DNA of 64,000 bases, taken from positions 15,190,001-15,254,000 of the forward strand of contig OZ024751.1 of assembly GCA_964016885.1 (NCBI GenBank), given 5' to 3'. This DNA comes from Eledone cirrhosa. Its lineage: Eukaryota. The translations under genes were made by a program, and so were the position numbers. Below the pieces are notes generated by a model. That model saw only the letters and a program-made list of their open reading frames with translations. It made no database searches and had not been told where the DNA came from. The first letter of the stretch is position 1; each line of letters starts with the position of its first letter. Below, in pieces: positions 11,141-61,465 of this stretch.

Positions 11141-12543
11141 CTGTAACCTTTGAAATGCATGCAGGACAAGAATAGAAAAAATTTGACACAATAGTATTGA
11201 ACCTAGAATAGAATATATCCTAAGCAGCAGGGTCAGCCTGCCCAGTATTGGCCTCTTCAGCCACCAACACTCCTGCAACAGATGTGGACAGCCAGATGAC
11301 CAAGTTTTCAGTGGAATCCCAGAAGATTACTGATACCACAATTACTGCAAACTCATTATGGAATCAATCAATATTATCTTTGTCTGGTCTTCCATGCTGA
11401 CTCCAACCCTTTTAGTTGTGTCTTATGATAAATACATAGTAAAAAATACAGCCTGATATGGATCCAACACTTTTAGTCGTCTAATGACAAATAAACAGTG
11501 AAAAATCAGGTCTTACATGACTCCAATACTTTTAGTTGTGTCTAATGACAAATTATTAATGAAAGGTCAGGTCTTACGAAAATACAATGCCTTGCTAAAC
11601 TGCCCAAAGGTTAAAAAACAGTTGAAGGCAAATAGGAAACAAATCAGTTATGAATTCAAGTTAATACTTGAGTTGAAAAAGGGAATAGAAAAACAAAGGT
11701 GATGATTTAGATATCAGAAAACTAGTTTCACCAATAACTTTAATATAGACACACGAGACAAGTTGATTCTACTATAGCCTTAGGTTGACCAATATCCTGT
11801 CAATAAATTTGGTAGACAAAAATTGTAAGGAAGTCTGCCATACATTATATATATATGTTGGTGATCTACATGATAAACACACCCAGGACACGCTGTCAAG
11901 TGGGTGATAGAAAATGCATCCAGCCATAGAAAGCTGGCCAAACAAAGAGTTGGGAGGAACCCGACCCTTTAGTTGTTGTGTCAAGGACATGACAACCTCC
12001 CTAGTGATGGTAACCTACAAAATAAAAACACCCAGTACATGCTGTAAAGTGATTGGTGTTAGGAAGGGCATCCAGCCATAGAACGCTTGAGAGGACCCTT
12101 CATTTCGCGTCAAAAGACAACTTCTCTGCACTCAATAGAATGTATGACTGTACGTAAGTAGTCTCACTTCAGTACTGACTTGGTCTATGTAGACAAGTCC
12201 AACTCCCACTAGAAGAGAAGGTGAATGTTAAATGATGATGATGATATACACACATTATATATATACGTGTGTCTTACTTTATATCGATAGTGTTTAAAGC
12301 AAGCATTCCAGTTTGACTAAGATAAGCAGTATATACCATACTTAAGATAAAGTATGGGTTAGCATCAGGTTCTAGACAAACTATCTAAAAATTAAAAAGA
12401 GAAAAAAGCTACATCCAACCCATGCCAGCATGAAAAAGTGAATATAAAAAAAATAAAGATGATAATGAAATAATACAGGACAGAGAAGATCACATTGAAT
12501 AGAAACAAATCTTCCCATTGTTATTTAAAAGAGACACTAGCAT

Positions 12544-12836
12544 TTTATTGTCATTTTCTGATTTATATTTTAATATAAAAAAAATAAACAAACATCTCCA
12601 GAAAGTTGAGGAAGAAGAAAAAAAAAAGTGAAATGGAGAGAGAAACATAAAATCTGTAGATGAATACTGGTTAAAATGTTGTGAGTTAAGTTCAATCTTT
12701 TCCTCCCCAACCACCCACCCACACAATGAAGAATGTAAAATGAGAATCCACCGTCGGATGGTGCAATGACGATGGCGTTAATGCTGCTTACCATTCCATC
12801 TGGTAGCAAAGCTTGGCAGAAATTTGACGGTTTATT
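12544..12836 (-). terminator. Candidate SNF poly(A) signals (proximal AATAAA 12836-12831, distal AATAAA 12549-12544)
   Basis: Two canonical hexamers downstream of the stop codon, with U/GU-rich sequence nearby. Which one is used cannot be seen from the sequence. Confidence 0.45.
12748..12775 (-). promoter_or_regulatory. U1 stem-loop II-like hairpin (U1A/SNF binding site) in the SNF 3'UTR
   Basis: mRNA sense CCAUCGUC-AUUGCACCAUCC-GACGGUGG: 8-bp stem (one U-G pair), C-G closing pair, loop beginning AUUGCAC. Confidence 0.75.
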
Positions 12837-12877
12837 TTGAATGCCTTACTGAAATGCACCATATTTTCGTTTCTGCC

Positions 12878-13037
12878 CTACTTCTTAGCAAATGTGATTT
12901 TCATTGCATTGTTTGGAGTGATCTTGAAGCCTTGTAGTGCATCCTTTGCTGCACCGGCCTGCATCTCATTTTCAAACTCAACAAAGGCAATATCATGTCG
13001 ACCAGGCACCAAACGAACTTCTTTAAAACCAGGAAAT
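12878..13037 (-). CDS. SNRPA: SNF/U1A terminal coding exon ([21 protein letters not shown]...MKITFAKK*)
   Basis: Long polypyrimidine-TAG acceptor; TAG stop at 12880-12878; conserved RRM2 C-terminus. Confidence 0.97.
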
Positions 13038-16000
13038 CTAAAAGAAAAAAAAAAGAGAAAAGAAATCCATAAGAACTAGTTAAAAAAAATCTGTCTTTTT
13101 CACCTACATATTCCAGCGGGTCCAGTTAGAAGCAACTGTCTCCAATTGATCCGTCATGGATGTAGTATAGTCAACTATACCACAGTGGTACCCACATGTA
13201 AGTGGGGAGATTGGACTGTTGACAAATGTCTTGATCATTGACAATACTTCACCACACTGTGGTACCTACTTACAACCAAGTAGACTGGACTGTTGACAGT
13301 TAAATGTCTTTACTATACAGTGGTACCTACAACCTACTAGACTGGACTGTTGACAGTTAAATGTCTTTACTATGCTGTGGTACCTACTTACAACCGGGTG
13401 AACTGGATTGTTGATAGTTAAATGTCTTTACTAAACTAAAATCTGTCTCCTTCGCCCATTTATTCCAGCAGGTCCTGCCAGAAGCAACTGTCTTCAATTG
13501 ATCCGGCTGGACCCCCAAGCGGTTGGTTTTTCCCATAAAATCTGTCCCAGTCTCTTCAGCTGTATCAAAGACATGACAATCTCCCAAGTGCTGGTGCCAC
13601 AATACAACAAACTAGATAGAGTGTGGGATGATATGTAAGCGAAATATAGGCCACCTGGGACATCTGAGAGGCCAGTAGCTCCACTTGAGGACTGACTTGG
13701 TTTGTGAAAACCTGTCCAACCCTTGTTAGTAGGAAGGTGAATGTATGATGATGATAGATCTTTGTTATCGATGTCCTCACCCCCATCATATATCTGATCC
13801 TATTCTGAATAATGGAGACAGTTGGTGCTTATAAGGTGCCACTATTTCAGATAGCTTTGAGAGCGGTGGATTGGCAGTATCGGTAGAGGGTGGGACGCCA
13901 TGCTTTGCACCATAGAGTTACGTCTCTTTATGATCTAAGTTCAAATCCCATCGAGGTTAACTTTGCCTTTCAACCTTATGGGGTCGATAAAATAAAGTAC
14001 CAGTCGAACACTGGGGTCGATAAAATAAAGTACCGGTCACACACTGGGGTCGATTTAATTGACTTTCCCCTCCCTCCAAATTACTGGCCTATATAAGAAA
14101 CCACTATTTCAGATAGCTTTCCCCACAGTAAGAATTCAGCCAGGTATCGTAAGCCACTGAAACACTGCCACTTACTACAGTAAATTATACCACACTGTGG
14201 TACCTACTTACAGGCAAATAGACTGAGCTGCAGACAGTTATGGATGCAGTACAGTGAACTATTGACAGTTATATGTTTTTACCACATTGTGATACCTACT
14301 TACAACCAAGTAGACTGGACTGCTGATAGTTAAAGGTCTTTACTATACTGTGGTACCTACTTACAGCTAGGTGGACTGGGCTATTAACAGATGCCTTGGT
14401 CATTGACACAGTACTTTACAATACAGTGGTACCTACTTACAGCTGGGTGGACTGGGCTAGTAACAGTTTTAGTGTTAGTCATGGATATAATACAGTGGAC
14501 TCTGCCGTGGAGTGGAACCTACTTCCAGCTAGATTGACTGGACTGTTGACAGTCAAGTGTCATGTCCACCAAGATATGAACCAATAACTTCTCATCAGGT
14601 TATCTATTACCCCTCTGTCACCCATTACAAATACACAAGTTGAGACTTACTGATTAAACAACATGGACAACATCATTTCTGTGGTTTCTTCTGGAAGATT
14701 TGTTAAGAACAGAATTTGATTTGGAGGTTGCTCTGGAATGGTATTTGGTGCTGCCATATTTGTAGGATCTGAAATAGAGAATATGGTGGATTAATTACTA
14801 ATGTTAAGACTTTTGTTCTTACTATATCAAGCAGTAAACTAATAAATATAAATATATATATTCAAAATTAATCAGAGGAGAAGCAACTAACACTCTATCG
14901 CAATGCTTATTTGCTGGAAATAATTTTTGAATAGTCTGCTACTTCCTAGAGCTGGCATTTAAATCTTATATATTTATCTCTACGCTCCTTCAAGATTTGA
15001 TTATATTCTTCCACTTTTGATATATATATATCATCATTGTATGTTTCATGAAAGAAAAAATAAGCATAAGAGGAATCAGAAGTAGTGTGCAAAAGAAAAG
15101 ACAGCATTGGTATGGATCACTGGGTGAAGAAGTGCCAAGAAATCTGCAGTAGAGGAAGGCCAAGGAAGATCTGGACAGAGGTGGTGAGAGCTGATATCAA
15201 ATCGATGAAATTCAGTGGAGAGATGCTGTGCTGAAAAAGACCCATCAAAACCAGGCAAGTGTGGGAAAAAATGAACATAAAAATAATGATGATGATGATA
15301 TTGTATTGTTCTGTTTTTTTTTTTTATTCCTCAGTTACGAGTTATGAGATACAAGATTCTAGAGGTTAGAGGTTATAAGTCACAGATTGACAACACCCAG
15401 TAAATAGTAAAAATATACTGAATTATACCATTTCACATCAGACTAGTTTTTTAGTGTAGCTTAGTGAATGTTAGCATGAGTGCATAAATACAACATGCTA
15501 TGAACAGACTGACAATAAAACAAAGTAGTTCCATTCAACATTTACAGAACTGTGCTGACTAAGAGACTGCACTACTGTGATGATAAAACAAAGGTTTCAT
15601 CTGAATAAAATATTTAATATGATGATGACTGATATGATATTATGTATGAGCACATATAAGCGAGATGCAGACTCCTTCTCCAGCCTATCTTGGAGGTCAG
15701 TAACCCTACTTCAGCACTGACTTGGTCTATGTAGACCTGTTCAACTAACAGGGAAAGCAGACGTTAAACGATGATGATTATTATACAAATTACAGACCAT
15801 GGTCTATTCAGATAACACAGAATAGAACATGAATCAATTACTTTTCTAATTAATTATATTAATTCTGTTTATTATCGTTCTGTAGGCAATAATGGAGGAG
15901 TTTAAGACCGGCTGCCCACGGGAACTCCTGTATGCTGATGACCTAATACTTATATTATTTATTTTGAGAACAATAACTTAACAACAGTATGAGTGGCCAG

Positions 16001-19000
16001 TTATGGCTGTTTTGAACAGAAAGAGGTGAGAGAATTCTGTCCGGATACAGTCGGTTTAAATGATGATAAATAGAAATGTCAATCTTAGTTGCAGTTGCAC
16101 TCCACCTCTGGTCTATAAAGAAGTTTTCCAAGAGTAGGCTGATTATGAAGGAGTGATGCTGGAGCTGTGAAATCTTGTATGCATCAATTTCAACTCTTCT
16201 TATTAATAACTGCATTGTTTCTTTCCAGGGACTAAGTTGAAAAATAAACCTCATCTGTTAAGCTGACCCTCGTAAACACTATCTGTTCATTACAGCTCAT
16301 TAGGAATATTTCAGCTCCAACCCTTTCCCCTCAGTCAGCATAGATTAATTAATAGTCATTATATAACAACCTCTCAATACACAGTGTAACGGGATTAGTG
16401 ATAAGAAAACCTGCCAAACAAAAGGTTGGAAGGACTCTTCAGCTATGTCAAAGACATGACAACCTCCTTAGTACTGGTGATCTACATGATAAACACACCC
16501 AGTACACTTTGTAAAGAAGGTATCCAACTGTAGAAAATCTGCCAAACAGAGGGTCAGGAGGACTGTTCAGGTGTGTCAAAGACATGACAACCTCCCAAGA
16601 GTGTGGAAATATATGCGAGCAAAATGTAGGCCTCCAGCCCACCTGAGAGTGCATGAAAGACAAACAATCACTTACTTTGAACAACCGGTTGCTGTAACTG
16701 TTGTAGTACTGGTTGTTGAGGAACAGGTTGACCAGCCATTGCTGATATTGGTTGAATAGGAGGTGGTACAACACCAGCTGCCTGGGCTCTGAAACGCAAA
16801 CAAACATAAATTACAGCATTAACCCTTTAGCAATTCACCTCAATTTGTCAAATGTCATATTTATCTGTTCACATTATTTTCAGTTAATCGTACTCAAGAG
16901 GGTTATCAATTTTATTTGTTTGTAATTTTCTTAATTTTCTATGTGCAGGCTTGAAATTTTGTCAGTAGATGTTTAAATATCAATAATTTACAATTATATA
17001 ATTTTACCTGATTTTTTTGGTTAATTTGACTTTTATGGACAGGTGAAATTAATTAATAGGGGCCTTTGAAGTATCAACCAGGTGCAAATACTGGTTTAAT
17101 ATTAAATACGTTGTTTTTGGCATAATACTTGATATATAAGCATCACTAAACCTTATATCAGTGCTCCAGTAATTCCATAGTCTTGGAAATTGTTTTATAC
17201 CGAACATAATATTTACGGTAAAAAGTCCTTGCAATTCCGCAGCATCTGTTGGTCGCCATAACAGATCGGGTTTTCCTCGATTTGAAATCTGTTCTTGGGC
17301 ATATCGATTAATCTCTTCTGCCACAATTTCGAAGAAAGTTTGTGGTAAAAAGAAAAAGAAATAATCCAGTGCTTTAGTATCGGGAGCTAATGCGTGTTGT
17401 GGACCAGTATTTTGAATAAAATCGGGAACATATATTGGTGTGGTATTTTTCAACCACGTTGCTGTAATATTTTCAATGGCGTCCTGGAGATCTCCTTCGT
17501 TTTCACTTTCAAAACAACAATCATCGTCGGATGAAATTTCAGAAATGTAAACATCTGATTCATTTGAAGATAAATCACTAATATTATCTTTTGTTTCTTG
17601 TTTATTTTTAATATTGTCGTGTGTAAAACCTTCAAAGTCGGTATCGCTACTTTCATAAGCCATGTTGATACAAATAAAAAATCTGTTCTACTTTCAACGT
17701 TAGTGTGGGTGTTATTGGCCGGTTTCGGGCGGATTGAACAAATGAAGAGGAAATAATTACGGCCGGTTTGAACACTAAAGGGTTAAATTCAACATTCAAT
17801 GATGCTACTAATTAGAGCTGTAAACTATATCCTTGGCGGCTTTTGAATATTAAATATATACTATAAACGCTATGAGAAGGAGAGGTCAGATCTAATATAT
17901 AGATATATAGGAGGAGGTTGACTTTAAAATATATAATAATATAAGCCCTATGACAGAGAGGTCAAATCTAATATATAGGAGGCTGGTTTTAAAATATATA
18001 ATATAAACACTATGACAGAGAGGTCAGATTTGATATACAGATATACAGATGGAGGTGGACTTTAAAATATATAATATAAACACTATGACTGACTTTGCAG
18101 CTGCCTGTTGGGATGCTCCTTTCTTGCGTTTCTTATTTTCTGGTTCATCTTCCTTCTTCTTCTTTGGTCTTTCTACATAAGTGCCTTTCATCTTAGCAAT
18201 GATGTCAGAATCTTTCTTGGAATATTGAATTCTCTGGAAAAACAAATAAAAAATCAACATCATTGTTATTTAATGTCCATATTATCTGCTAGCAAGGTTT
18301 GGACATGTATCACAAACTGGTCAGTACTCACGTGGAGCCATGGAATCCTAGGTGAGCCCAGGGCGCAACATACAGTCCATCCTACGCTCTACTGTGTGCA
18401 TGTTATTGTGGCACCAACACCACGCAAGTTGTAATATCTTTAGCACAGCTGAAGAATCTTCCAAACCCTTTGTTTGGAAGTTTTCTACAGCAGGATGCAA
18501 TTCCTATTACCAACAACTTTACAGAGTATATTTGTTGCATTTATCATATAGATCACCATGTTTATGACAAAATTGAAGAATCCTCCTTTGGTAGGCTTTC
18601 TACAGTCAGATCCCCTTTATATCACCAACCACTTTACATTTAAAAAATTAGATTCATCAATTTTTAAAATCAGGGACACATTCCAGTTTGATAAGAAAAG
18701 TTAAAATATGCAGAATAGGGCTTTTTAAAGGTAGGACAAATATTAGGAGTCTCATAAAGAAGAGCAAACCAACACCACAAAGTCTTTAAGCATTCAGTTA
18801 GCATATTTCCATTTGTATATATTAACTCTTTCATTAGTATATTTCTAATGAAAGACACTGCTATTAGTTTTCAAATCATTTTGAAAATAATCAAGTATTT
18901 GGAGGAATTTAGTAATATAACTAACTTTTTCATTATTCAGTTGTGTTGTTTGGAACATATCTTAAAAGCTTTTGCATAAAATTATGTTGGATGATTTTCA

Positions 19001-21424
19001 GATAAATATAAATACTTTGAACTAAACAGCTCAGTATCATAGAATCAGTTTAGCATCCTAAGAGTTAAAGAACTGTTTGAATCTACCAATATATAGTAAC
19101 TGGGTTGTCTGTTGTGTTCTTGAGCAAAACACTTCACTTCACGTTACTCCAGTACACTCAGCTGAAAATGAGCACCAGCAATAACTGGCGTCCTGTCCAA
19201 GGAGGAGTCTTGTACTCTGTCACTTAATGCCATAGAAACTGAGGTAAGCACTGAACTGATAAGCCTCCGGACTTGAGACGGACTTTGGACTTTTTTTTTA
19301 GAATATACATATATTTAGACCAAGAAAAACCTGGCAGAGGTGGTGAGAGCTGACCTCAAATCGCTGAGACTCACAAAGGAGTTAACAAAGCAACATGACA
19401 AGTGAAGACATGCTGTGATGAGAAAGACCCATACAACCCATGCAAGCATGGAAACAAACTTTAAAATGATAATGAGATGATATGGTAAACATTCACATGC
19501 AGGAATTTGAAAAATAAAACATGGAATGTCAATCTTACCATTGGTTTATCATAGAATGGGAAACCTTGCATTGATCTGAGAGCATTTGTGGCACTGTTGA
19601 TGTCTTTAAAAATCACAAAAGCCTGTCCTCGACATTTCAAAGTTTTTAGAGCAACTATGTCAAGAATTTGACCAAATTGAGAAAAAATTGCATATAAAGA
19701 TTTCTTTAATTCTGGAAAAGAGACAGAAATAAAAAGATGTTAAATACAGATGGTAATTACAAAGTGATTATAAAGGTGTTTACAGAATAAACGAAGAGTC
19801 AAGAGATTAGATATAGATCAAGGCTTACAGAAACAGCCCATGTTCATCAAGGTAGAACGGATGAGCTTGAAGGGAGGCTGTGCTAGAAAGGACCTGTCCA
19901 ACCCATACCAACATAGAAAAGATATACAAAGGATGATGATGATCTCACCATCATATTTTTGACAACTTTTCTATGCTGGCATTGGTTTGAACAGAACTTA
20001 TAAAGGCAATGCCTTACAGTTAGATGTCATTCCTAACATTACCCTTTAAGTCACTTTTAACATGTAGGGATGCAGTGCATTTATTCTAAACCAGATACAA
20101 ACAGCTATTTTATTATAATCTTCATAGTATAGAGTTTGATCACTCGTTTACCAAGTGGGGGGGTAGAACTCGTCATCAGATTCCATTGCTGATACTATCT
20201 ACCAGTCACAACTCATCATCATAATTGTTTAACCGGTGGATTGGCAGTGTCGGTAGAGGGTCGGACGCCATGCTTTGACGTATATAGTTACGGCCCTTGC
20301 CATTCTGAGTTCAAATCCCGCCGAGGTTAACTTTGCCTTTCATCCTTACAGGGTCGATAAAATAAAGTACCAGTAATGTACTGGGTAATTACTGGCCTTG
20401 TGCAAAACGTAGAAACAATTATTGTTTAACCCTTTAGCATTCACATTACTCTATATTTACTATTATATTTTCATGGTAAAGGCTTTACCTCACATAATAT
20501 CGAATCTATGAGATTTTGAAAGTATTTATTTTGAGAACAATACCTTAACATCAGTTTCAGTGACCAGTTACAACCAGTTTCAAGAGAAAAAGGTAGAGAA
20601 TTCTGGCCGGTTTGAACATTAAAGGGTTAACGTCCATCTTCCACGCTATGATGGGCTGTCCCTTTGTGAAAGATCAGGTTGGGGGACCGTGATTTGCTCA
20701 CACAGAACTGATTTTTTAGCTTGTTTTCTACAGCTGGATGGCCTTCCTAACGCCAACCACATTTACAGTGTACTTCAAAACTCATAGTAATCCAAAGGCT
20801 GTAGGGTGGCTATAATAGGAGTCATGCAATAACTATTCACAGCTTAGAGCAGGCATGTCAAATATGTGGCCCGCACAAAGGTTTTTACAGTGCGAGCATG
20901 TCTTATCTTCGTAATATAAAACGAAAAAATGTGTTGTGCGCAATTAGTTGACATGTGTGGTCCTCAGACAACACGTGGCCCTCAATTTGATATGCCTGAC
21001 TTATGAGTATAGGAGCTGCAAAAGTGTATCTAGTCTGTCATTGGGGCCCTGTCAATGATCAATTATAACAAGATATATGTTGTTATGGCTCACACATGCA
21101 CAAGTTTTATCAGCCTCCTATGAGGTTGCATTTCAGTGTTTTTAATGATGGAAACCCCAGTCATCTTATCTGATTCTCTGACAGTTCTGCCAGTCCAGAA
21201 GGATGAATGATAAAATTGATCTTGGCAAGATTTAAACTCAGATTGCAGAGAACCAGAACAAACGCTATACAGCATTAAATGCAATTCTCTAATGACTGTC
21301 AATTTGTCACCTGTAAAGATATTTAGTAGATTTTGTCTATTTCAAAACTAGTCAACTTACCATCTTTCTTAATACTTTCATTTAAATTGTTAATATAAAT
21401 CGTGTGGTTTGGTCTGATGTCCAT
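12878..21424 (-). CDS. SNRPA: U1 snRNP A / U2B'' (SNF-type) two-RRM spliceosomal protein; complement(join(12878..13037,14651..14768,16676..16788,18094..18233,19539..19711,21361..21424)), 255 aa
   Basis: Hand-spliced translation [56 protein letters not shown]...[47 protein letters not shown]...FAKK* matches the U1A/U2B''/SNF family. All introns are GT-AG and the exons total 768 nt in frame. Confidence 0.97.
13170..14560. repeat. ~60-bp minisatellite in two blocks (13170-13430, 14170-14560) in SNF intron 5
   Basis: GTGGTACCTACTTACAACCAAGTAGACTGGACTGTTGACAGTTAAATGTCTTTAC repeated. Confidence 0.8.
14651..14768 (-). CDS. SNRPA: SNF/U1A coding exon 5 ([32 protein letters not shown]2 start)
   Basis: tttcAG acceptor, CA|GTAAGT donor; conserved RRM2 N-terminus. 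Confidence 0.96.
16676..16788 (-). CDS. SNRPA: SNF/U1A coding exon 4 (Pro/Gln-rich linker [13 protein letters not shown]...QQPVVQ)
   Basis: tttcAG acceptor, A|GTAAGT donor; phases fit both neighbours. Confidence 0.9.
16823..17782 (-). mobile_element. Internally deleted piggyBac DNA transposon in SNF intron 3
   Basis: TTAA duplications (16819-22, 17783-86), CCCTTTAG/CTAAAGGG termini, and a piggyBac transposase N-terminal ORF inside. Confidence 0.9.
17049..17663 (-). pseudogene. Truncated piggyBac (PGBD-like) transposase ORF, 204 aa, lacking the DDD catalytic region
   Basis: Acidic N-terminus, then [45 protein letters not shown], the typical PGBD N-terminal block. Confidence 0.8.
17840..18090. 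repeat. ~65-bp tandem repeat abutting the SNF exon 3 donor
   Basis: TTTAAAATATATAATATAAACACTATGACAGAGAGGTCAGAT repeated ~4 times. Confidence 0.75.
18094..18233 (-). CDS. SNRPA: SNF/U1A coding exon 3 ([18 protein letters not shown], basic linker)
   Basis: Within ORF 18024..18263; tttccAG acceptor, AA|GTCAGT donor (phase 2) matches the next exon. Confidence 0.93.
19539..19711 (-). CDS. SNRPA: SNF/U1A coding exon 2 (RRM1 core, [31 protein letters not shown]...PFYDKPM)
   Basis: ttttccAG acceptor, ATG|GTAAG donor, RNP1 motif RGQAFVIF. Confidence 0.97.
20430..20626. mobile_element. piggyBac-type MITE
   Basis: TTAA TSDs, CCCTTTAG...TAAAGGG termini. Confidence 0.85.
20850..20998. mobile_element. 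hAT-type MITE
   Basis: CAGGCATGTCAAA / TTTGATATGCCTG TIR with internal GTGGCCC repeats; diverged ~8-bp TSD. Confidence 0.6.
21361..21424 (-). CDS. SNRPA: SNF/U1A coding exon 1 ([24 protein letters not shown]2)
   Basis: ATG at 21424, 12 nt after a polypyrimidine-CAG acceptor (exon begins 21436); ends G|GTAAGT, phase 1. Confidence 0.95.
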
Positions 21425-57562: not shown

Positions 57563-59968
57563 TGAAAATATAAACAGAGCATATAAATAAATTTACAGTA
57601 GAATAACATAACAAATATGTTTTAAATATATACATAAATAACATTACAAATGCTTCGATAACATTATAAATAGCTCGCGATTCATTCAGAAAGATTTATT
57701 CTTTTAATGTTACAATATTAAAGAAAATGTAAAGGAAGGGGTGAATAATGGAGCCAACACCAGAGCAAAAAACAGCAACGTCGCGAGTACTGGGCAACCT
57801 CTCTAATGATTTTTGAGGCAAGCCATCACACTCGCAGCATTGCCTCGGGTGATGGCGAGTCTGATGTGCTGAAACAGCCAAGCGCCCTCGCGAGATTCAC
57901 CAGTTACCTCTATTAGGCGAGCCGCCAATGAAAAGAGGAACCTCAAAAGCCACATGCTGAAAAATGTAGCTGGCCGACAGATCGGCTGCGGAAGCTGTGG
58001 CTCTCGTCCGAACTGCAGCATCCAGGATGTGGGAAAGAGCAAAAGAGTCACTAACAGTGACGTCCCAGACAAGGCACCTGCCTCTCAACTAGAGGCACAG
58101 GGTAAGGCCATCAGGTCTTTTGCCGTCACTTCTGGACAACACAGATGGTTCCAAGACTGAGGGGATATTCGCCTGGGCCAAAGCTCTCTTCAGAATGAGG
58201 TTTAGCTCCGTGTGACGCGCGAAGCGGCCGGCATTCAGGCGGCAAGAAAGACCGTGGAGGCTTGTGGAGTCGAGGAGTTTGCCGCATCGGCACCTCAAAC
58301 CCATGCAGACGTTAGCTCCCACTCTGAGGGCGATGGAGACACGAAGTTCGTCCAGGTTGAGTGGGCCACTAACGTTGGCCAGGGGTAGGGCATCAACCCA
58401 GTCGCCTGAGTATTTGGCGCTGGCAGATAGTAAGCGGCACCTTGCAAACTGATCTGACTGGACAAAGAGGGAGTCGAAGGTGGCCTTCGAACTTATGATG
58501 TCCCAAGTTCTCTGACTTCGACTGTCCTCCACCTTCTCAGGAAGAGACAAGCCCAACTCACTCCATTGCTTGAGAGCTTCACCCAACTCCCTGTTGGAAC
58601 TAGTCCATGTTGGAGAGGAGAGGATGCTGCTCACCAGGATGGAGCAAGCGTGGGTGGAGGAAAGGAAGCAGGGGAGAGAGAGGGACGAACACTTACGAAG
58701 ACCAAGGGCCCCAAATTGCTTGGGAAATGCAGCCTGATCTGGAGAGAGTCTAACATTGACCAGGCACTTGAGTCTCTCGAGGATTAGGTCATCGAAGCAT
58801 TGGAGGCAGGACAGAAATCTGTGAGAGGGGCTGGCCCTGTGCAGATAAAGAAGCTTAGGAATAGACAGGTAGTTCCTGAGTATGAAGAAACCTTGATGGG
58901 GTTCAATAACTTCGATATTCCTCAACAGCTGCTCAAGGCCAACCATGTTCGAATGGAAGATTAACTCGAAGGCCAGGTTTGTGATTGGGGCTCCTAAGGA
59001 ACACCAAGCCGACGGGGGAGGGACCGCGATGGAAGGGAAGGACTCTGCAAGCAGGTCGATTTAGCTGTTGGTGTTGAGAAGCTGGGTGGTTGAGGATCCA
59101 AAGCTCACATTTGGAGCTATTGACCTGGAGACCCCGGCGGACAAGCTCCTCAACAATCTTGTTGGCAGTGGCGAAAACCATATCCGGAGTTCCCAGCAAA
59201 CAAGTGTTGTCAAAGTACCAGACATTGAGGTCCAACTCAACCCCCATCTTGGTGATGTCATCAATGCCTAGTGCAAACAGAGCGGGCCCGAGTGGGTCAT
59301 CCTGTTGTACTCCTGAGGCAGAGGTGATGATTTGGTCACTGAAAGAGAGGTAGGAGGGCTCCCGATAAGCCTGCCAAGCAAAGTGGTAGAGTTGTGGGAC
59401 CCTCTCTCTTACTGAGCCGAGGACAATGTCGCGGTTGACGGAGTTAAATGCATTCTTGCATTGGGGGACGAGGAGGGCAAGTTGGTAAATGCTGTGGTAG
59501 TGTGGACAGCAGCCTCACATCCCAACTTGATACCCACCCCCAGCTGAATGGGGGAAAATCCCTCCGCCCGTGAGTCGGAGACCAACAGCAAACACGCCTT
59601 TGCAGTAAGGCGGTGAAAGGTGCAGCCAACCGCAATGGGGCGCAGGTCCCCGTTGGGCTTGGTGAGACCAAATAGCTTGGCACTGAAGAAGAGTGGGCGG
59701 ATGAACGGGAGAACGTTCACTGAAGAGAACTGATTCGCAAACTGAGTCAGGCTCTCCAAGAGTTCGAGTCCGGCATCACCGGCCAATAAGGAGATACCAT
59801 CCTTGAGGTGTTGAGGACGAAGGGCGTCAATTCCCACGCCTAACCCAGCGGGGAAGGATGAAATCGCCTTTCTGATGATATCGGTGGTGTAAACCGGTCT
59901 CGAGTATTCTGGTGGTTCGGGCCAGTTTAGCTGATCATCTGGGGGTGCTGATGGGTGCTTTACCAACT
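57563..59968 (-). mobile_element. CRE-like non-LTR retrotransposon (RT + CCHC + restriction-like endonuclease), 5'-truncated and inactivated
   Basis: LRPIAVG, QLGVGIKLGCEAAVH, SGVQQDDPLGP, WYFDN (degenerate YLDD), CRCG..HGLSC, KRPDGLTL, LVWDVTVSD; frameshifts and an in-frame stop at 58089. Confidence 0.88.
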
Positions 59969-61465
59969 TCGTGTGTATGTGTGTATCATCATCATCATTT
60001 TACGTCCGCTTTTCCCTGCTTGCAAGGGTGGGACGGGAACTGATTCTGGCTTGATTTCTACAGATGGATGCCCTTCTTAACACCGCCTCATTTACAGTGA
60101 GTACTGGGTGCGTGTGTGTGTGTATATATATAAATATATATATATATTTACACAATCGAAAGGTTGTGAGTTCAATTCTCAGACCGGGTGATGTGTTGTT
60201 TCCTTGAGCAAGACACTTTATTTCACATTGCTCCAGTTTACTCAGCTGTAGAAATGAGATGATAGGACTGGGGTCCCTATCATTCCACTGCAAAGAGGTC
60301 GTGGAGGCGCCACGGCAAAAAAGCACCCAGCACTCACTGTAAATGAGGTTGGTGTTAGGAAGGGCATCCAGCTGTAGAAATCAAGCCAGAATCAGTTCCC
60401 GCCCCACCCTTGCAAGCAGCGTTATTATGTACAGTGGACAACATTATCCAATGATATATCTTTCTATAGGATGAAAGGGTGTAATTTGAGGGAGATTTTT
60501 CTGCTATTTCTAGCAGGCCAAATGACCATATAACAGCTCCTTCATTAACTAGTCCTGTAGATATTATTTACACTGGTATTGAAACATGATTTATGATATC
60601 AGCATGAATGGTTCCTTGCGCTGAAATTATTTAACAATGTTTGCTTTAAAGAAAATAACAAGATTATGTTACCGACAGTGTGTGTGTGTATTTATGTTAT
60701 TGAAACATATCAGGACTATACGAGGGTCAGATAAAAGTTCATATGCTGAAGGATTGATTATTTGAGCTGTGAAATCGAGGTATGTGTGTGGGTATATCTA
60801 GGGAATGTAATGTCCAGATACTGTAGATTCACCAGAATGAGCACTCGATGTGTAGTTTCCAAGGTATAGAGGCGTAGAACTAAGCAGAGGGTAATAATAA
60901 TAATAATAATAATTGTTTCTACTTTTGGCACAAGGCCAGTAATTATTCCAGTACGTTACTGGTACTTTATTTTATTGAGGTTAACTTTGTCTTTCATCCC
61001 GTAAGGATGAAAGGCAAAGTTAACCTCGGCGGGATTTGAACTCAGAACACAAAGGGCTATAACTCTATGCTGCAAAGCATGGCGTCCAACCTTCTACTGA
61101 TACTGCCAATCCACTGCCCTATCATCATCATCATCATCATCATTTTACGTCCACTTTTCCCTGCTTGCAAGGGTGGGACGGGAACTGATTCTGGCTTTAT
61201 TTCTACAGCTGGATGCTCTTCCTAACACCAACCTCATTTACAGTGAGTGCTGGGTGCTTTTTTGCCATAGCACCTCCACGACCACTTTGCAGTGGAATGA
61301 TAGGGACCCCAGTCCCTATCATCTCATTTCTACAGCTAAGTAAACTGGAACAATGTGAAATAAAGTGTCTTGCTCAAGGAAACAACACATCACCTGGTCT
61401 GAGAATTGAACTCACAACCTTTCGATTGCAAGGCCAATGCTCTAACCACTAAGCCATGTGCCTCC

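Follow-up and report, generated by a model that had tools for sequence, protein, structure and literature searches.

A conserved hairpin resembling U1 stem-loop II as a candidate autoregulatory element in the 3' untranslated region of the octopod SNF gene

Vertebrate U1A controls its own message through the polyadenylation inhibitory element (PIE), which has an internal-loop geometry. This autoregulation is a textbook feedback loop that, in the excerpts of the literature available, is described only in vertebrates, i.e. after the duplication that separated U1A from U2B''. In mammalian U1A messages, a conserved U1 site resembling a 5' splice site (5'ss) lies upstream of the PIE and both repress together (PMC3157836, PMC5071671; all papers are cited here by their PMC numbers and for the excerpts available). 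Here we describe a locus of Eledone cirrhosa (assembly GCA_964016885.1, contig OZ024751.1, positions 15,190,001 to 15,254,000; this 64,000-nt stretch is called the window, and all coordinates refer to it) that contains a gene for SNF, the single SNF-type gene found. The 3' untranslated region (3'UTR) of this gene carries, at 12748..12775 on the minus strand, a hairpin which, judged by its sequence, is a conserved copy of stem-loop II of U1 small nuclear RNA (snRNA). It is a real, conserved element to which SNF probably binds. The novelty would lie in a hairpin-type element in an invertebrate SNF 3'UTR, the vertebrate U1 site plus PIE being known and presumably alike in its working. The literature searched yielded no account of a 3'UTR element in an invertebrate SNF gene, although its primary papers or supplements may mention one, and the available part of PMC4114683 holds no mention of PIE, UTR or polyadenylation.

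The hairpin and the layout of the SNF 3'UTR

Read on the minus strand from 12775 to 12748, the hairpin is CCAUCGUC AUUGCACCAUCC GACGGUGG, where AUUGCACCAUCC forms a 12-nt loop and its flanks an 8-bp stem of seven Watson-Crick pairs and one U-G. The stem begins 102 nt past the SNF stop codon, a TAG at 12880-12878. With AUUGCAC at the loop's 5' side (12761..12767, the segment used in the heptamer search and in the comparison with the U1 loop) and a C-G pair closing the stem, the hairpin has the sequence that a U1 stem-loop II-type SNF site requires. SNF favours a C-G closing pair, and this pair together with C at loop position 7 constitutes the U1-type determinants for SNF (PMC5992148); optimal loops measure at least 10 nt and their 3' bases are not read (PMC4114683). 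The fold has a free energy of -10.1 kcal/mol (z = -2.47), with 5 of 200 shuffles equally stable, and shows a pair probability of 0.98-0.99 inside the conserved block described below. No other C-AUUGCAC-N-G hairpin whose stem reaches 4 bp exists on either strand of the 64 kb, in which the bare heptamer is not enriched (7 found, 10.5 expected). When the 358-nt UTR was dinucleotide-shuffled 100,000 times, such a hairpin arose in 70 shuffles with a stem of at least 4 bp, in 30 with at least 5 bp and in 4 with at least 8 bp. A sequence-only reading of the window had already proposed the C-G-closed 8-bp stem and the 12-nt, AUUGCAC-starting loop about 100 nt past the stop, without naming the strand. 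It had also taken AUUGCAC plus the closing C-G for the recognition element of SNF, in agreement with the published determinants, and had judged a chance origin in this UTR improbable, which the shuffles confirm.

The genome's own U1 stem-loop II, with the loop AUUGCACUCC or AUUGCACUGC, likewise has AUUGCAC on the 5' side of a loop closed by C-G. It differs in that its loop measures 10 nt instead of 12 nt, whereas the stem of our hairpin is unrelated, longer and uninterrupted. Moreover, the hairpin lies within an mRNA and is not a U1 fragment, as its unique core and the lack of an Rfam match to U1 indicate. Stem-loop IV of U2 snRNA shares a longer loop starting with AUUGCA and is bound by the same SNF protein (PMC5992148), but it has G at loop position 7 and lacks a C-G closing pair, where the hairpin has the U1-type C at both. 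Since a C-G pair closes the U1 loop of this genome and AUUGCAG stands in the U2 loop, the hairpin is U1-type at both positions that SNF discriminates. The U1 genes of this genome stand in tandem arrays with a spacing of about 2.67 kb, the U2 genes in arrays with about 2.2 kb (G000 C2, C1128, C3, C13), and U1 and U2 loop variants coexist.

Three other readings of the hairpin were rejected. The 20-nt hairpin core is unique in the genome; the element is therefore not a repeat. The plus strand folds no better than its shuffles (z = -0.52). AUUGCAC is also a microRNA seed, which we take to be that of miR-92/310; a microRNA target would, however, carry GUGCAAU on the sense strand, and Rfam gives no microRNA precursor. 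Over 12000-13100, Rfam returned five unrelated weak matches at E up to 10 and none to U1, and over the whole window nothing reached the gathering score and no relevant family appeared.

Conservation among close relatives was evaluated in eight of 22 listed runs, one each from organisms A, B and C, four from organism D and one from the own organism; the runs consist of contigs, presumably of RNA. The contig alignments end at 13034-13100, and splicing of the contigs is therefore deduced from their lengths only. No change is listed in the hairpin in organisms A-D. This invariance is complete for run X17, in which five of five differences are placed and no gap occurs; in X5, X9, X15, X16 and X18 one difference each is unplaced, statements on gaps referring to the matches listed. 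The conserved 74-nt block to which the hairpin belongs (12724..12797) also includes a donor-like site and a U-rich 3' flank, and a single position in it varies (12777). In the adjacent upstream 80 nt, 13 positions vary, one nucleotide is deleted and roughly 25-30 letters are inserted, and the exon shows 13 variable positions among the relatives compared. As many differences are common to all relatives, about three independent lineages are represented. At local rates, the rough probability of 28 invariant hairpin positions amounts to 3e-4 to 7e-3.

One X16 contig (organism D) crosses the hairpin and passes into poly(A) at about 12524, which is 20-25 nt past the distal AAUAAA (12544..12549); an X5 contig terminates six letters past 12524. 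Thus, the hairpin is contained in the mature message, and the distal AAUAAA is the signal in use, with cleavage near 12520-12524, although a templated A-run in organism D may mimic the poly(A) tail. The own-organism contig X22 is identical from 13033 to 12490 and runs past the X16 poly(A) site, so that the cleavage site is shown for organism D only. A proximal AAUAAA (12831..12836) precedes the hairpin; in the eight runs, no poly(A)-ended contig was found at this signal. Within 1,378 nt past the stop, one AUUGCAC and no AUUGUAC occur.

The second conserved component of the block is the 5'ss-like sequence AUG|GUAAGC (12786..12794, boundary 12792|12791), a candidate site for the U1 small nuclear ribonucleoprotein (U1 snRNP). 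It lies 86 nt past the stop, 16 nt ahead of the stem and 24 nt ahead of the heptamer, is identical at positions -3 to +5 to two real donors of the SNF gene and has no listed change in organisms A-D. It is covered by a predicted small hairpin (12785..12808; core pair probabilities of 0.76-0.99 in three windows), in which the two changes listed in the relatives fall into the loop (12798) or convert A-U to G-U (12804). As in the vertebrate U1A message, the last exon of the gene itself carries a binding sequence for the U1A family ahead of the poly(A) signal, preceded by a conserved 5'ss-like sequence, here the candidate U1 site at 12794-12786. The protein is of the unduplicated SNF type, in contrast to vertebrate U1A. 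By its architecture, the octopus element is not a PIE; the Rfam family of the PIE, presumably U1A_PIE, is unmatched here at E up to 10.

Hairpins of the same class in distant SNF-family genes

Of the 256 stretches found to encode a relative, the 80 best ones were used and grouped into 62 clusters; up to 1,200 nt past the stop were analysed (48,568 nt), with 56,636 nt of upstream sequence as control. C-AUUGCAC-N-G hairpins with a stem of at least 4 bp were found 41 times, in 21 of the 62 clusters. None occurs antisense and none in the upstream control, and shuffles contain 0.1 on average. ATTGCAC itself occurs 67 times in sense and 5 times in antisense orientation in the 62 clusters, and CATTGCA and ATTGCAC are the two most frequent heptamers in the SNF-family 3'UTRs. 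When sites were collected blind to structure (n = 66), 60 were preceded by C, and a stem of at least 5 bp was present in 32, compared to 4.9 (maximum 12) with permuted 3' flanks. Among 40 sites, the loop measures 10 nt in 26, 11 nt in 7, 12 nt in 3 and 13 nt in 4. Covariation was analysed in 36 of 37 sites picked for their closing C and G alone, one site with a 12-nt loop being dropped. Hereby, 76.6% of the cells pair versus 55.3% in shuffled data, and 55 two-sided changes were counted versus 20.8 (0 of 500 shuffles), where copies within the same UTR depend on one another and positional orthology does not link the sites.

For the loci bearing sites, the closest proteins come from gastropods, bivalves, annelids, bryozoans and crustaceans, a loose assignment that rests on the best tblastn match to 35 named proteins. 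Unlike the vertebrate PIE, these loci carry one to five separate hairpins, in arrays of up to five, at variable distance from the poly(A) signal (32-521 nt in those 18 of 27 clusters that have a signal after the site). Among loci with long UTRs outside the two groups named below, 23 of 29 contain at least one site. In the mollusc-like loci L022, L023 and L045, a donor-like site precedes a heptamer by 22-29 nt, and it is kept between L022 and L023; the alignment of L045 with L067 is unconvincing (63% column identity), and a 100-nt indel between L019 and L020 lacks GT-AG ends. The expectation of the sequence-only reading that the loop would recur on a covarying stem has thus been borne out by a hairpin that is unchanged in four related organisms and by the enrichment of AUUGCAC-loop hairpins in invertebrate SNF-family 3'UTRs, mollusc-like loci included. 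Its description of the architecture as a single true hairpin site holds insofar as there is one true hairpin here; it is incomplete, considering the multiple sites of other loci and the conserved AUG|GUAAGC 16 nt upstream, which it had overlooked and which stands in the same order as the mammalian U1 site plus PIE.

Several further features of these 3'UTRs were observed. Those of L083, L095 and L019/L020 contain C-G-closed hairpins with a U2-type AUUGCAG loop start alongside the AUUGCAC hairpins. L030, L036, L053 and L086 possess three or four conserved AUUGCAC sites with a closing stem of 1-3 bp and a purine-rich 3' side, which recall real U1 stem-loop II, with its short stem and internal loop, more than the long hairpins do. 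In L022 (1316-1325) and at the equivalent position of L023, a conserved GUGCAAUGCC precedes the sites and shows complementarity to their sequence GGCAUUGCAC; it could possibly serve as an antisense switch. GUGCAAUGCC also includes a microRNA seed match, of a family we assume to be miR-92. The clusters with the C-terminal signature NP(M/L/I)K that lack CATTGCAC are L035, L038, L042, L044, L046, L051, L058, L062, L065, L069, L070, L071, L080, L082 and L087; the divergent paralogue clusters lacking it are L089, L090, L097 and L098.

The SNF gene and its protein

The gene lies on the minus strand and has six coding exons with GT-AG ends that encode 255 aa. These are exon 1 with the start codon and Ser17 (21361..21424), exon 2 with the RRM1 core and the VALKT signature (19539..19711), exon 3 with the end of RRM1 and a charged segment (18094..18233), exon 4 with the linker (16676..16788), exon 5 (14651..14768) and the last coding exon with the second half of RRM2 and the stop codon (12878..13037). 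Two RRMs are present according to the gene model and to a Pfam run on a 90%-alike protein (P0002). The RRM1 exon is closest to SNF, with Drosophila SNF (6f4g_B) as its top solved-structure match, and has the VALKT motif in beta2/loop 3, the ancestral motif of the U1A/U2B''/SNF family (PMC4114683). The last exon is 100% identical to an Octopus sinensis protein named U1 snRNP A. Both exons have one match each in the 3.0-Gb genome, in a search that scores the best candidates only and in an assembly that is possibly incomplete. From these matches we infer a single SNF-type (U1A/U2B'') gene of an octopus-like animal. Among 12 aligned family members, Cys48 accompanies Ser17 in the octopod-type SNF proteins. 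An SNF intron contains a transposase fragment (Pfam DDE_Tnp_1_7, E = 2e-13; 17049-17684, minus strand). Elsewhere in the window, several overlapping open frames at 58089-60380 on the minus strand, one with a weak RVT_1 match (E = 3e-5, under the curated cut-off), likely represent a decayed retroelement.

How the hairpin may act

We propose that free SNF on the hairpin and U1 snRNP on the donor-like site repress 3'-end maturation, a model which, taken as a whole, has in our estimate an even chance of being correct. SNF left over from U1 and U2 snRNAs would bind the hairpin via RRM1, presumably with a weaker affinity than U1 snRNA, so that the snRNPs would be filled first. U1 snRNP is predicted to occupy the site 16 nt upstream, and both together would block 3'-end maturation of the SNF message and, with a presumably negative sign, limit the SNF level. 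One hairpin and one U1 site would hereby stand in for the vertebrate two-site PIE plus U1 site, while other invertebrates would employ hairpin arrays instead. In Drosophila cells a U1 site in the 3'UTR represses, and tethered U1A represses only where the poly(A) signal is canonical (PMC9136276, section 7). That SNF binds the hairpin is far more probable than any single downstream mechanism.

A number of observations weigh against this model. The PIE contains two sites for two U1A molecules and lies just upstream of the signal (PMC5071671), whereas here a single site is placed in a true hairpin loop 198 nt ahead of the AAUAAA in use. In vertebrates, polyadenylation is not inhibited by one U1A molecule alone (PMC5071671, section 8); the U1 site here, or the arrays of hairpins elsewhere, would matter for this reason. 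At the position of the vertebrate segment that inhibits poly(A) polymerase (U1A 103-119, after RRM1), a charged segment is present that differs from the primate U1A row. Codon 17 (21376-21374, minus strand) encodes Ser in three octopod-type proteins versus Lys in the other 9 of 12 aligned. Lys17 of Drosophila SNF touches the loop-closing pair, and its exchange for Ala weakens SNF binding tenfold (PMC5992148); Ser17 may thus lower the affinity for the hairpin. The fold itself depends on context, because a G-rich tract with GGG runs (12700..12723), at which the relatives' alignments have G-rich loose ends, can pair with the C-rich loop: the pair probability ranges from 0.02 to 0.98 in six larger windows and averages 0.48 in 19 sliding 120-nt windows. 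The 12-nt loop is uncommon in the hairpin class, and the octopod block shows invariance without covariation that extends past the hairpin. When a covariance model made from the 36 sites, which have 10-nt loops, was run on the window, the octopus hairpin came top of 22 at a non-significant E = 0.96, where the model is weak in that it gives E = 0.28 for true U1 stem-loop II and misses most sites with 11-13-nt loops of L022/L023.

The distant genes add further points of this kind. CATTGCAC is absent from 35 of the 62 clusters, namely 15 with one C-terminal signature, four of a divergent paralogue type, ten others with less than 450 nt of UTR and six others with long ones. The element was possibly lost in one lineage, perhaps along with gene duplication. 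Donor-like sites occur within 60 nt of the heptamer in 4 of 27 clusters, a count that 29 of 300 shuffles reach; within 100 nt, eight sites in 6 of 27 clusters (0 of 300 shuffles, four widths tried) amount to a weak enrichment. Finally, reporters in human cells gave a higher output with a lone stem-loop II hairpin or with natural 3'UTRs bound by U1A (PMC9136276, section 9).

The latter result favours the alternative that SNF binds the hairpin and acts on stability, export or translation of the mRNA, possibly positively. In line with this, the hairpin is kept in the mature RNA, distant from the poly(A) signal, and 21 of the 27 site-bearing clusters have no donor-like site within 100 nt. However, negative feedback of the vertebrate kind is the simpler reading of an own binding site in the gene of a splicing factor, and the donor-like site is conserved together with the hairpin. 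We therefore regard such an action as unlikely, even though it holds up best among the alternatives.

Similarly unlikely, if by a shade more so, is a facultative 3'UTR intron that opens at the donor-like site and holds the hairpin. SNF would promote its splicing, and the resulting junction 86 nt past the stop would expose the message to nonsense-mediated decay, which responds to spliced junctions more than about 50 nt past a stop codon. The identity of the site to two real donors of the gene would suit such an intron, as would the G-runs, pyrimidine tracts and several AGs ahead of the poly(A) signal; G-runs enhance donors. Organism D has two runs, out of four, in which contigs end precisely at 12792|12791 and overlap by 30 nt. 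The depth across this break changes in opposite directions, from 35.8 to 25.7 in X15 and from 33.7 to 55.6 in X17, and a length variant of the T-run at 12820-12822, which lies 30 nt upstream and varies between organisms, would give the same break geometry. No spliced joint from 12792 was found in the contigs of the eight runs, from which rare forms drop out. SRSF1 and SRSF2 autoregulate through 3'UTR introns (PMC6884704). Their logic would be the same if the donor-like site were spliced, but they use SR-protein motifs and not an snRNA mimic.

That the element is no SNF site at all, i.e. that the block is conserved for another reason or that the hairpin does not form in the cell, we consider improbable. 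The competing fold with the G-rich tract, the conservation over all 74 nt, the atypical loop length, Ser17 and the E-value of 0.96 fit this view. It is opposed by the 4 in 100,000 shuffles of the UTR that yield such a hairpin and by a hairpin class which is strand-specific and confined to the UTR of the SNF gene family. Least credible of all is a choice by SNF and U1 snRNP between the proximal (12836-12831) and the distal AAUAAA, the former of which would give a short message that lacks the element. The proximal hexamer, 40 nt ahead of the donor-like site, has no listed change in the relatives, and downstream donors suppress poly(A) sites elsewhere (PMC2874999, table), but no poly(A)-ended contig lies near 12810 in the eight runs, and at the local rate chance would leave six bases invariant in about one of three cases.

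Returning to the repression of 3'-end maturation by SNF and U1 snRNP, the octopod element would be a minimal version, consisting of one hairpin and one U1 site, and therefore offers a direct test of whether a hairpin and U1 snRNP together meet the two-U1A rule. The sequence rules of the hairpin class make it easy to detect and assay. It appears likely from the recurrence of these hairpins in the SNF gene of many invertebrates that they let SNF limit its own production. In a wider sense, we lean slightly towards the view that U1 stem-loop II mimics in SNF 3'UTRs are an ancestral, widespread invertebrate feedback, of which the PIE would be a descendant or a convergent counterpart. In octopods and some other molluscs, the hairpin would work together with either a U1 site or a facultative 3'UTR intron, giving a two-part switch that gauges the excess of SNF over U1/U2 snRNA. 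If true, the occurrence of a hairpin form in loci of mollusc, annelid, bryozoan and crustacean type, where SNF is unduplicated, would date the feedback loop to early bilaterians and explain how one protein that serves two snRNPs matches its level to its RNAs.
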